A program made the translations under genes and the position numbers. A stretch of DNA of 64,000 bases from Escherichia phage vB_EcoM_PTE-Eco15: the sequence record PQ352352.2. One strand, written 5' to 3'. This document shows, one piece after another, positions 38,278 to 41,361 of this stretch; within the stretch, counting starts at the first letter, position 1; each line of letters begins with the position of its first letter. The notes under the pieces are model-generated. The model ran no database searches and was not told the origin of the DNA. It was given only the letters and a program-made list of their open reading frames with translations.

Positions 38278-38450
38278 ATGATGATTTAAAATATCAATTA
38301 TTACGTGAACTTGATGTTTTGATTAAACTTTCTGCGCAAAAAGGATTTATAATTGGATCAGGTCAAAAAGACCCCAACGGTCATTCAATCGTAGCGGTTA
38401 TGAATCAGAAACGAGTCATTTTAAAACTTTTGGGGATTGACATACTGTGA
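38274..38450 (+). CDS. Hypothetical protein
   Basis: 58 aa; ATGA overlap; below the ORF-track cutoff; translationally coupled. Confidence 0.4.
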   Translation: MNDDLKYQLLRELDVLIKLSAQKGFIIGSGQKDPNGHSIVAVMNQKRVILKLLGIDIL

Positions 38451-38632
38451 GCCTAAGCAAAGAACAAAAAGATAAATTGTTTGAGCTTATCCATGAACTT
38501 CTAGATGAGCATACAGAAGCAAACACCTTTTATGATGAATACGGCCCGCTATCTCCTGAACAGCAGGAAGAATTTGCTGATCGGTTTGATAAGAAAGAAA
38601 ATGAATTAATAGCTTATGTGAATACGCTTTAA
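38447..38632 (+). CDS. Hypothetical small helical protein (paralog family member)
   Basis: 61 aa, GTG start overlapping the previous stop; shares the S/TxEQxxKLxxLI...VxTL pattern with four ORFs at 40451-41361. Confidence 0.45.
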   Translation: MSLSKEQKDKLFELIHELLDEHTEANTFYDEYGPLSPEQQEEFADRFDKKENELIAYVNTL

Positions 38633-38641
38633 GAAGGTGAT

Positions 38642-39223
38642 ATGGCGAGTTTAATTTTTACTTATGCAGCAATGAATGCTGGAAAATCTGCTTCTCTTTT
38701 GACTGCTGCGCATAATTATAAAGAACGCGGAATGGGTGTATTAGTTCTTAAGCCTGCTATTGATACTCGCGATTCTGTCTGTGAAGTCGTTTCTCGCATT
38801 GGAATTAAACAGGAAGCGAATATTATTACAGATGATATGGATATTTTCGAGTTCTATAAATGGGCTGAAGCACAAAAAGATATTCATTGTGTATTTGTAG
38901 ATGAAGCTCAGTTTTTAAAAACTGAACAAGTGCATCAATTGAGTCGAATTGTTGATACATATAATGTTCCTGTTATGGCTTATGGATTAAGGACTGATTT
39001 CGCCGGAAAATTATTTGAAGGTTCTAAAGAACTTTTAGCGATTGCAGATAAACTTATTGAACTAAAGGCAGTTTGTCATTGTGGTAAAAAAGCTATTATG
39101 ACAGCTCGATTAATGGAAGATGGAACACCCGTTAAAGAAGGTAATCAAATCTGTATTGGTGATGAAATTTATGTTTCTTTGTGTAGAAAACATTGGAATG
39201 AATTAACTAAAAAGCTCGGTTAG
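38642..39223 (+). CDS. tk: Thymidine kinase
   Basis: 193 aa (same as T4 Tk); P-loop AMNAGKSAS; zinc ribbon CHCGKK...C. Confidence 0.93.
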   Translation: MASLIFTYAAMNAGKSASLLTAAHNYKERGMGVLVLKPAIDTRDSVCEVVSRIGIKQEANIITDDMDIFEFYKWAEAQKDIHCVFVDEAQFLKTEQVHQLSRIVDTYNVPVMAYGLRTDFAGKLFEGSKELLAIADKLIELKAVCHCGKKAIMTARLMEDGTPVKEGNQICIGDEIYVSLCRKHWNELTKKLG

Positions 39224-39265
39224 TGCAAAAGTTATAAATAGGTTTATCTAACTAAAGGGGTATAT

Positions 39266-39478
39266 ATGCTACAATTAACTGAAAAGCAACTTCGCAATCT
39301 TACTGTTCTTCAATTAGATGAAATTCGTAGGGAAGTTGGAAATGTTATTTCAGCTTTGCGTCGAGAAGTATCACTCAACCAATCTCCGGCAGACTATACT
39401 AGATTGCGAAATTTTGAAAAATACCTTGATAAAGTTAAGGCCGTGCATCGGCATAAAGTAAATACAGGACAAAAATGA
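39266..39478 (+). CDS. Hypothetical protein (rI-flanking)
   Basis: 70 aa between tk and rI. Confidence 0.5.
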
Positions 39479-39490
39479 TAGGAGGCCTTT

Positions 39491-39784
39491 ATGGCCTTAA
39501 AAGCAACGGCACTATTTGCCATGCTAGGATTAGCGTTTGCTTTATCTCCACCGATTGAAGCGAATGTCGATCCTCATTTTGATAAATTTATGGAATCTGG
39601 TATTAGGCACGTTTATATGCTTTTTGAAAATAAAAGCGTAGAATCGTCTGAACAATTCTATAGTTTTATGAGAACGACCTATAAAAATGACCCGTGCTCT
39701 TCTGATTTTGAATGTATAGAACGAGGCGCGGAGATGGCACAATCATACGCTAGAATTATGAACATTAAATTGGAGACTGAATGA
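39491..39784 (+). CDS. rI: Lysis inhibition antiholin RI
   Basis: 97 aa MALKATALFAMLGLAFALSPPIEANVDPHFDKF..., near-identical to T4 RI as remembered. Confidence 0.93.
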   Translation: MALKATALFAMLGLAFALSPPIEANVDPHFDKFMESGIRHVYMLFENKSVESSEQFYSFMRTTYKNDPCSSDFECIERGAEMAQSYARIMNIKLETE

Positions 39785-40167
39785 AATTCAGCGACTTTTC
39801 ACAAAGTGGAAAACCTTCAAAGGCAGATGAATACTTAGGTTTATTAATGGCTGCACAAGCTTATTTTCATTCTGCACATTTTGAAACTAAAAGTTATGCT
39901 AGACACAAAGCATACGATTTTATTTTCTCCGAGTTGCCAGATTTGATTGATAAATTTGGTGAGCAATATTTGGGGTATTCTGGTAGAAAATACACACCTT
40001 CAATTCCAGATGCCAGTAAACTTCCTACCGACACAATTAAAATGATTGATCGCATACTAGACCAATCTAACAGCATTTATAAAGAAATGCCTCCAGCCAT
40101 TCAAAGCACGATAGATGATATTACTGGAATGTTTTACCAGAGTAAGTATCTTCTTTCCCTCGAATAA
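39781..40167 (+). CDS. Hypothetical protein (rI-flanking)
   Basis: 128 aa; ATGA overlap with rI. Confidence 0.55.
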
Positions 40168-40171
40168 CATT

Positions 40172-40196
40172 AGTCTCCTTCGGGAGACTTTTTTCA
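40172..40196 (+). terminator. Rho-independent terminator
   Basis: Hairpin AGTCTCC-ttcg-GGAGACT followed by T6. Confidence 0.7.
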
Positions 40197-40204
40197 TTTT
40201 ACCG

Positions 40205-40234
40205 GTTTACTTTCCGTTTGAGCTGTGGTACTAT
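40205..40234 (+). promoter_or_regulatory. T4-type early promoter
   Basis: GTTTACT, 17-bp spacer, TACTAT. Confidence 0.6.
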
Positions 40235-40262
40235 ACAACCATCGGATAAAGAGGAGAACATC

Positions 40263-40451
40263 ATGAAAATTGAAGCACTCAATCAAGAAGGAAATATCTA
40301 CGTCATCATTAATGGTGATTTTTTCGTCGACATGGATGAAGTTACTAGTGAAGAACTTGTAGAACTTCTTAAGAAACGTTATAATATGTGTGATGAAGCT
40401 GCAACTCACATGGCGTGTGCAATATTCTCTCTTTCATATGTGGTGGAATAA
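40263..40451 (+). CDS. Hypothetical protein
   Basis: 62 aa from ATG preceded by AGAGGAG. Confidence 0.5.
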
Positions 40452-40654
40452 TGATTAGTATCGAACAAGCTGATAAAATTAAGGAATTGGTAGCTTTAAT
40501 TCGTAAAGCAGACGAGGAGCGCATTAACTTTGCTTGGTATTCATCGGGTATTTCGAATAAAGGCATTAAAGACTTTGAAACTAAAGTGGATAATGCTTTA
40601 GAAGCGTTAGATATGTTTCTTGATGAAATTATCGATCATAATACGAGAGTTTAA
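40451..40654 (+). CDS. Hypothetical small helical protein (paralog family member)
   Basis: 67 aa; TAATG overlap; [17 protein letters not shown]. Confidence 0.45.
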   Translation: MISIEQADKIKELVALIRKADEERINFAWYSSGISNKGIKDFETKVDNALEALDMFLDEIIDHNTRV

Positions 40655-40656
40655 GT

Positions 40657-40851
40657 ATGCTAACACGCGAACAGTTTGAAAAAATCATTAAATTAGCACG
40701 TGATATTGAAATAGATTCATATCAATTAGCAGTTGAGCATTGTGAAGGATATTCATACGACGGTATAGAAGCAGCTAAAAGAGATTTGGATAAATCCAAA
40801 GCTAAGTTAGTTCAATATCTTGAAATGATTAGGTGGAATAATGAAAACTGA
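40657..40851 (+). CDS. Hypothetical small helical protein (paralog family member)
   Basis: 64 aa; MLTREQFEKIIKLARDI. Confidence 0.45.
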   Translation: MLTREQFEKIIKLARDIEIDSYQLAVEHCEGYSYDGIEAAKRDLDKSKAKLVQYLEMIRWNNEN

Positions 40852-41014
40852 AAAGCAGATGTTTTTAATGAAACTAATTGAAGAATATGCTAATGCAGTT
40901 TCTGACTATGAGTATTCTGCTCGGGAAAGAGGTACAGCTTTCGCAAAAGAAGAATTGAAAATCATGGTTGATGCTCACACAAAGCTTCAGAATTTTATTG
41001 AAAACGTCATTTAA
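40841..41014 (+). CDS. Hypothetical small helical protein (paralog family member)
   Basis: 57 aa; below ORF-track cutoff; MKTEKQMFLMKLIEEY; overlaps the previous gene by 11 nt. Confidence 0.4.
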   Translation: MKTEKQMFLMKLIEEYANAVSDYEYSARERGTAFAKEELKIMVDAHTKLQNFIENVI

Positions 41015-41016
41015 TG

Positions 41017-41046
41017 GTTTACAAGTTGGCAAGGTTATGGTATAGT
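41017..41046 (+). promoter_or_regulatory. T4-type early promoter
   Basis: GTTTACA, 17-bp spacer, TATAGT. Confidence 0.5.
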
Positions 41047-41178
41047 AATCTTGTCAACTGCCAAGGAGAAGAGAATGAAAGTTTTGTTTGTTGTGTATGT
41101 GATGATTCAATATAATTACCCAATGTTTACTTATAATCTGGTGAACAACATTATTGATATTATTCAAAGGAGTATGTA

Positions 41179-41361
41179 ATGACCCGTGAACAAGCCAATA
41201 AGTTGATGGACCTTATTCATGACTTACGTGAAGCCGATACCGATTTAAATGATGTGGCTTATCACGCAGTAAATGATGGCGCTGCTGATTTCTATGAAAA
41301 ACAGGTTGACGCTCGCCAGAACGATTTAGTGAATTTTGTTGAAACTTTAATTGGTGAATAA
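41179..41361 (+). CDS. Hypothetical small helical protein (paralog family member)
   Basis: 60 aa; MTREQANKLMDLIHDL...VNFVETL. Confidence 0.45.
   Translation: MTREQANKLMDLIHDLREADTDLNDVAYHAVNDGAADFYEKQVDARQNDLVNFVETLIGE

Follow-up and report, generated by a model that had tools for sequence, protein, structure and literature searches.

Five small DUF7438 paralogs around tk and rI of a T4-like Escherichia phage: a catalogued early gene family with a predicted helical-hairpin fold

Around the antiholin gene rI of a T4-like phage lies a set of very short genes, and the locus raises the question of whether these genes are related to one another, how they are maintained and what their products could do for the phage. 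We addressed this question in a stretch of 64,000 nucleotides (the window, meaning the whole stretch of DNA analysed) from Escherichia phage vB_EcoM_PTE-Eco15, sequence record PQ352352.2. The window belongs to a T4-like phage (Tequatrovirus), the region concerned is 95–99% identical to many Tequatrovirus genomes, and the direction of T4 early transcription corresponds to the + strand of the window. An earlier note on this DNA had proposed five paralogous open reading frames (ORFs) encoding small helical proteins, and all five exist at the starts given there, on the + strand: A (38447..38632, 61 amino acids, GTG start), B (40451..40654, 67 amino acids), C (40657..40851, 64 amino acids), D (40841..41014, 57 amino acids) and E (41179..41361, 60 amino acids), the latter four starting with ATG.

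All five proteins match the Pfam model PF24219 (DUF7438), with scores of 69.6 (A), 59.8 (B), 63.3 (C), 57.5 (D) and 55.7 bits (E) against a gathering score of 25 bits. The E-values range from 6e-15 to 3e-19, and the matches cover model positions 1–56 or 1–57 of 57. In PHROGs, A, B and C are assigned to phrog_653, D to phrog_2758 and E to phrog_4859, and cross-hits are found among these three groups. The identity between the five paralogs is 20–30%. When Smith-Waterman scores were compared with those of 1000 shuffles, E emerged as the sequence hub, joined to A, B, C and D with z scores of 13.4, 8.5, 4.0 and 5.3, respectively; the pairs A–B, A–C and B–C are marginal (z of about 3), and D is not significantly similar to A, B or C in this pairwise test. 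In a leave-one-out comparison, a profile of four paralogs was scored on the fifth and on 1000 shuffles of the fifth. For D, 4 of the 1000 shuffles reached the real score; for each of the other four paralogs none did. The comparison with shuffled sequences, on which the earlier note had staked its family, ended with profiles that beat 996–1000 of 1000 shuffles. Together with the Pfam model and the hairpins that AlphaFold2 predicts for D and E, these tests bear out a paralogous family of small helical proteins: by profile and alignment, A–E are diverged paralogs of one family, Pfam DUF7438 / PHROG 653 and relatives. A six-frame translation of the window contains no sixth family member. Three neighbouring ORFs were considered as extra members and rejected, namely rI.1, which starts with LTEKQLRNL, the 58-residue ORF at 38274 and mobD.5; each is without a Pfam match and scores no higher than its shuffles.

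The family itself is already known. It is catalogued as DUF7438 and PHROG 653, its T4 genes have been annotated for decades, and the proteins of the window are identical or near-identical to database entries. Moreover, the four intact T4 genes are listed under phrog_653 (PMC11879866 supplements), so that their paralogy is already on record. New here are the correct assignment of the genes to those of T4, a hairpin fold predicted for two members, a cassette-like evolution at two hot spots, the frameshift in mobD.2a and the recognition of unsupported database labels.

The conserved positions of the family were counted over 62 distinct members and are numbered according to E. E4 (61 of 62), L12 (60 of 62), L50 (55 of 62) and Y/F53 (62 of 62) are the most conserved, an aliphatic residue occupies positions 9, 16, 54 and 57, and T/S2 and Q5 are present in most members. 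A conserved hydrophobic seam runs through positions 9, 12/13, 16 and 23 and through 36, 43, 50, 53/54 and 57, with a spacing of 3–4 residues in both helices. Additional hydrophobic residues (1, 10, 13 and 54) are located where both termini meet, small residues occur in mid-helix, and the loop contains a glycine. All five proteins are acidic, with net charges from -2.4 to -10.3 (about -10 for A, about -9 for E, and -2 to -5 for B, C and D). The terminal motifs quoted in the earlier note hold only approximately: D reads K-T-E-K-Q and not [ST]-x-E-Q, B has V at the position given as [IA], and the C-terminal motif ends in N, D or E.

Two members, D and E, were modelled by AlphaFold2 with a family alignment of 19–20 sequences. 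E is predicted to form a helix-loop-helix hairpin composed of helices 3–28 and 33–59, with a predicted local distance difference test score (pLDDT) of 91. D, the most divergent paralog, is likewise predicted as a hairpin, with helices 4–30 and 32–55 and a pLDDT of 96. Both models are single antiparallel hairpins, in which the predicted helices pack along a canonical a/d hydrophobic seam. Among structures in the PDB, the best full-length fold matches are Rop/Rom (1rop and its mutants), with template modelling (TM) scores of 0.87–0.93 and a root-mean-square deviation (rmsd) of 0.8 Å over 56 residues; Aqs1, FrmR, CnrX and designed bundles also match. Among viral models, all fold matches were to uncharacterised proteins, from T4-like and other phages, and a sequence search of solved structures gave nothing below an E-value of 0.28. 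No relationship to Rop was detected by sequence or profile (hhalign probability 0.4%; no Rop match in Pfam at E<=1).

The translational coupling claimed for most of the five ORFs is real. The GTG of A overlaps the stop codon upstream (GTGA), and the ATG of B overlaps the stop codon of mobD.5 (TAATG). C begins 2 nucleotides past the stop of B, D overlaps C by 11 nucleotides, and the ATG of E overlaps the stop of a 34-residue ORF. The Shine-Dalgarno sequences are good for B, D and E and weaker for C; that of A is distant, in addition to the stop/start overlap. The 34-residue ORF (41075–41179) is hydrophobic, is the counterpart of T4 mobD.2, and has a strong Shine-Dalgarno sequence and a stop that overlaps the start of E as TAATG. 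It may encode a small membrane peptide or mainly couple translation into E.

The location downstream of early promoters, which had been proposed for most of the five ORFs, stands for four of them, B, C and D through a homologue of the mobD.5 promoter and E through a site of its own. The former is located upstream of mobD.5-B-C-D (40206..40234, +) and reads TTTACT, 17 nucleotides, TGgTACTAT. It lies below the threshold of the consensus scan and was assigned by homology to T4, the region being 96% identical. In T4, the mobD.5 promoter has been mapped by primer extension (PMC1702504). An intrinsic terminator-like hairpin after rI.-1 (40172–40189, +), consisting of a 7-bp stem with 4 G-C pairs and a following T run, splits the tk-rI unit from the mobD.5-B-C-D unit. 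The second, early promoter-like site is located upstream of the mobD.2-like ORF and E (41018..41046, +) and reads TTTACA, 17 nucleotides, TATAGT with a TG; it matches the sigma-70 consensus at 10 of 12 positions and has an extended -10 element. The T4 early promoter Pe57954 (PMC6024815), when its coordinate is transferred by alignment, falls at about 41053 of the window, just downstream of this site.

Data on T4 infection show when such genes are expressed. In a time-resolved omics study, mobD.3, mobD.4, tk.1 and tk.2 were all classed as early at the RNA level. Of the corresponding proteins, MobD.3 and MobD.4 were early and Tk.1 and Tk.2 middle, and the MobD.2a protein was not detected (PMC9697503 supplements). 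Among close orthologs, the ratio of nonsynonymous to synonymous change (pN/pS) is 0.08 for A, 0.31 for B, 0.09 for C and 0.09 for D, with zero stop codons, and among deeper orthologs the ratio is below 1 in every segment. Judged by these substitution patterns, the five ORFs are real genes under purifying selection, equipped with ribosome-binding sites. We also considered a hypervariable hairpin tip under positive selection, and rejected it: A, B, D and E vary more in their middle segment, C and the T4 tk.1 type do not, and in no segment does pN/pS reach 1. The variability of the middle segment points to relaxed constraint rather than demonstrated diversifying selection. At the same time, T4 does not need its counterparts individually when growing on laboratory E. 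coli. Deletions covering nrdC.11-mobD.3 were recovered in T4 genome reduction (PMC9825161), and tk.1, tk.2, mobD.2a, mobD.3 and mobD.4 were all scored 'Not Fit' in a transcriptome-wide CRISPRi-ART knockdown (PMC11879866 supplements).

The comparison with T4 reveals how variable these genes are within an otherwise conserved region. B, C and D correspond to T4 mobD.4, mobD.3 and an intact form of mobD.2a, respectively, with about 96% DNA identity and with gene order and early transcription units alike. A is the counterpart of T4 tk.2, to which it is only 68% identical at the nucleotide level amid flanks that are 96% identical, and thus represents a divergent allele. Our first assumption that A equals T4 tk.1 was discarded, as the DNA alignment puts A on tk.2; tk.1, another DUF7438 member, is absent from the window. 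The stretch from tk.3 to tk (38076–38632) holds a zinc-binding ORF, the 58-residue ORF and the divergent tk.2 allele, where T4 has tk.2 and tk.1. T4 mobD.2a (38 amino acids; locus L001, NC_000866, 2490–2675, minus strand) carries a 1-nucleotide deletion relative to the window and to slur03, which truncates a 57-residue D-type gene, and the coding DNA past the frameshift is still about 95% identical. The T4 gene is either a recent pseudogene or a reference error. E has no T4 counterpart: the stretch 41183–41632, containing E and a tudor-domain gene (PF24144), is missing from T4 and from locus L003, an indel of about 450 bp. At the position of E, slur03 carries a different DUF7438 member whose ends are identical to those of E (MT.EQ...ETLIGE), and these shared ends suggest recombination inside the gene. 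Between phages that are otherwise near-identical, genome alignment shows copies appearing and disappearing, suffering frameshifts or giving way to other alleles.

The same two-sided pattern, a fixed location with variable content, is observed across a wider set of genomes. A profile search of 1.84e9 (1.84 billion) representative proteins gave 29 matches at E<=1e-3; about 20 of these are genuine, and every genuine one has 57–67 amino acids. The contigs with genuine matches are T4-like genomes with the same neighbourhood, and over this search space the family is confined to T4-like phages (Tevenvirinae). We scanned 40 IMG/VR loci anchored on tk with an iterated family profile and obtained 76 members, which represent 62 distinct sequences and about 17 subfamilies. 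Where the family is present, a locus contains 1–5 copies, always on the tk strand, either within 1 kb upstream of tk or 1.2–2.7 kb downstream of it. The copies are found at two hot spots of constant position, one immediately upstream of tk and the other past rI.-1. No member was detectable in 15 of the 40 loci, all of which have a tk that is at most about 72% identical. Precomputed PF24219 labels are present on tk neighbours in L046–L048. Among GenBank phage records, the A type occurs in 741 (by tblastn, in two identity classes), the B type in 504, the C type in 588, the D type in 642 and the E type in 155, most of the latter at 80–90% identity. HX01, the one E-type carrier that was checked, is a Mosigvirus and has the gene at the same syntenic position.

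What, then, could these proteins do? Literature searches found no functional study of the family, and no annotated relative was found in Pfam, PHROGs, NCBIfam or the PDB sequence and fold searches, none of which is a dedicated anti-defence library. The earlier note had pointed to host takeover or anti-defence. This idea fits the dispensability, the variable presence and the allele swapping, and the case for it is circumstantial, with direct evidence neither for nor against. The reading that we favour, tentatively and with low confidence, falls somewhat short of an even bet: DUF7438 proteins may be dimeric four-helix-bundle binders that act stoichiometrically, early in infection, on a protein of the host, which might be an immunity factor. 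Any specific target would be far less probable than this general reading. Each protein would pair with itself or with a paralog to form a four-helix bundle, in the manner of natural hairpins of similar size such as Rop, phage Aqs1 and SSV1 D-63. Homo- or heterodimeric bundles are to be expected because a 60-residue hairpin is unlikely to be stable by itself when so much of its surface is hydrophobic and conserved, and because Rop and Aqs1, the natural proteins that it most resembles, are dimers. The bundle would then be a small module that binds a host protein early in infection and either blocks or redirects it. Phage proteins of such kind usually act by stoichiometric binding of another protein, Aqs1 being an example. 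Targets would differ between paralogs, and the advantage to the phage would depend on the host strain, so that purifying selection could coexist with dispensability and turnover.

Several observations weigh against this binder reading. No target, oligomeric state or phenotype is on record for the family. The two-helix hairpin is a generic shape that carries little information on function, and the E-values of the PDB fold matches are non-significant (all >0.1). Most paralogs are strongly conserved (pN/pS of about 0.09) and no segment exceeds 1, so that an intense arms-race signature is missing. In addition, the absent knockdown phenotype could equally reflect redundancy or a trivial role.

A more elaborate version of the binder reading, which we consider unlikely as a whole, takes the DUF7438 genes for a pool of interchangeable 'mini-binders' with a Rop fold. 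The half of the hairpin nearest the termini would provide a constant scaffold or dimerisation module, and target specificity would reside in the half nearest the loop, where the A, B, D and E lineages vary more. Each paralog or allele would have its own target, an immunity protein of the host or a factor of a competing phage, and neutralise it, and the cassettes would be shuffled at the two loci to adjust host range.

The proteins could instead act on nucleic acids, binding structured RNA as Rop does or, in the case of the acidic A and E, mimicking DNA and thereby sequestering a DNA-binding host enzyme. The Rop four-helix bundle clamps RNA kissing loops, and Rop/Rom is the best full-length structural match, with TM scores up to 0.93; however, the hairpin fold is generic, the hhalign probability and the Pfam search given above offer no link to Rop, and the conserved positions are core hydrophobics and E4, without a basic or polar RNA-binding face. 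The mimicry variant draws on the net charges of -10 and -9 that A and E concentrate in about 60 residues, whereas B, C and D are merely mildly acidic (-2 to -5). We regard a nucleic-acid role as improbable, and assign the same low standing to a role inside the phage, in which the proteins would serve as small adaptors or regulatory subunits and assemble with each other or with products of neighbouring genes such as thymidine kinase, the rI antiholin or rI.-1. A copy is located directly upstream of tk in nearly all family-bearing loci, with others after rI.-1, in several genera. Yet T4-like genomes are syntenic throughout, so that this adjacency conveys little information, and the 15 loci mentioned above have tk with no detectable member. 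The tight translational coupling of B, C and D would suit equimolar synthesis, but the subfamilies are not strictly co-occurring, the C type being found without the B type in L015–L032, and knockdown has no fitness effect.

It is less probable still that the ORFs have no function of their own and are drifting leftovers or recombination passengers in a hyperplastic region beside the gene of the homing endonuclease MobD. Such an origin would agree with their dispensability and variable presence, with the frameshifted copy in T4 and with the indel-rich surroundings near an HNH endonuclease gene. Such an origin is made less likely by the purifying selection (pN/pS 0.08–0.31, orthologs without stop codons), by the conservation of fold-defining positions over about 17 subfamilies and several genera, by the detection of the proteins in T4-infected cells and by the occurrence of the A–D types in 500–740 phage records each. 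Finally, a chance likeness of AT-rich, helix-prone short ORFs, with which the pairwise scores of D against A, B or C would agree, is refuted on alignment evidence by a curated Pfam model that matches all five at more than twice its cut-off, by leave-one-out profiles that exceed nearly all shuffles and by the z scores of 4–13 that join E to the other four.

Two labels in current databases bear on the question of function. E-type genes are labelled 'helicase loader' in PHROG 4859 and in RefSeq records. For E, no helicase-loader family was found, as Pfam at E<=1 gives DUF7438 only and NCBIfam gives nothing, and for a 60-residue protein predicted as a bare hairpin the label appears unsupported. 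T4 mobD.4 and HX01 mobD.1 are labelled 'molybdopterin-guanine dinucleotide biosynthesis protein MobD' in RefSeq (NC_000866, NC_018855 and others), and B has no match to a molybdenum-cofactor family in Pfam or NCBIfam. The gene name mobD.4, in which mobD stands for the mobile endonuclease gene, is the apparent source of this label.

The surrounding gene order was established from Pfam, PHROGs and the annotations of T4 and slur03. Upstream of A are located tk.4 (macro domain, 37398–37865), a DUF7202 ORF (37847–38074), a phage zinc-binding ORF (38050–38277, PF23895) and the 58-residue ORF (38274–38450, phrog_3452). A is followed by tk (38642–39223), rI.1 (39266–39478), the rI antiholin gene (39491–39784), rI.-1 (DUF5856, 39781–40167) and, past the terminator, mobD.5 (40263–40451). 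Downstream of E lie the phage tudor-domain gene (41363–41629, PF24144), mobD.1 (41631–42173) and mobD (HNH endonuclease, 42248–43027). The macro-domain match of tk.4 (PF01661) scores 24.3 bits against a cut-off of 22, and the gene carries the RefSeq label 'phosphatase'. Macro domains are able to reverse ADP-ribosylation, and tk.4, just upstream of the DUF7438 genes, is a candidate counter-defence enzyme. The gene rI.-1 overlaps the stop codon of rI and is followed by a clean terminator; its PHROG and RefSeq label, 'starvation-inducible transcriptional regulator', describes a function that appears unverified. Elsewhere in the window, the GC skew turns from negative to positive at about 20–22 kb, consistent with a change of the main coding strand.

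About a third of T4 genes are without an assigned function, and most of these are small early genes. Within this set, the DUF7438 family is an easy experimental target, with four or five copies per genome, a simple fold predicted with confidence, proven expression and natural variants that have or lack copies. Should its members turn out to inhibit host defence or host physiology, the phage counter-defence repertoire would gain a compact and easily engineered binder scaffold, and part of the 'hyperplastic' tk-mobD region would be explained. As it stands, the analysis confirms a catalogued family and corrects some misleading database labels, and does not describe a new kind of system.

Compared with the DUF7438 set of T4 (Tk.1, Tk.2, MobD.3 and MobD.4), the set of the present phage shows no difference in kind; it is without tk.1, has a divergent tk.2 allele and an intact D, and contains the additional member E. 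ColE1 Rop/Rom (PDB 1rop) resembles the modelled members in size (56–63 amino acids) and in the predicted antiparallel helix-loop-helix shape, and an a/d seam with small mid-helix residues is common to both. It differs in that no sequence or profile link exists and the Foldseek E-value is about 0.7. Moreover, Rop is a plasmid copy-number regulator that forms an RNA-binding four-helix-bundle homodimer, whereas DUF7438 proteins are phage early proteins, here predicted as hairpins. Aqs1 of Pseudomonas phage DMS3 (PDB 6v7u) is, like them, a phage-encoded helical protein of about 60 residues and is found among the structural matches, where its match is weak (TM 0.67–0.70, rmsd 2.9 Å, E 1.4). It differs in having no sequence relationship to DUF7438, in belonging to another phage lineage and host, and in not being multi-copy. 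Aqs1 is a dimer in solution and binds PilB (PMC13436744). As a small dimeric protein that binds both LasR and the pilus ATPase PilB, it exemplifies the stoichiometric mode of action that, by analogy, DUF7438 proteins may share.

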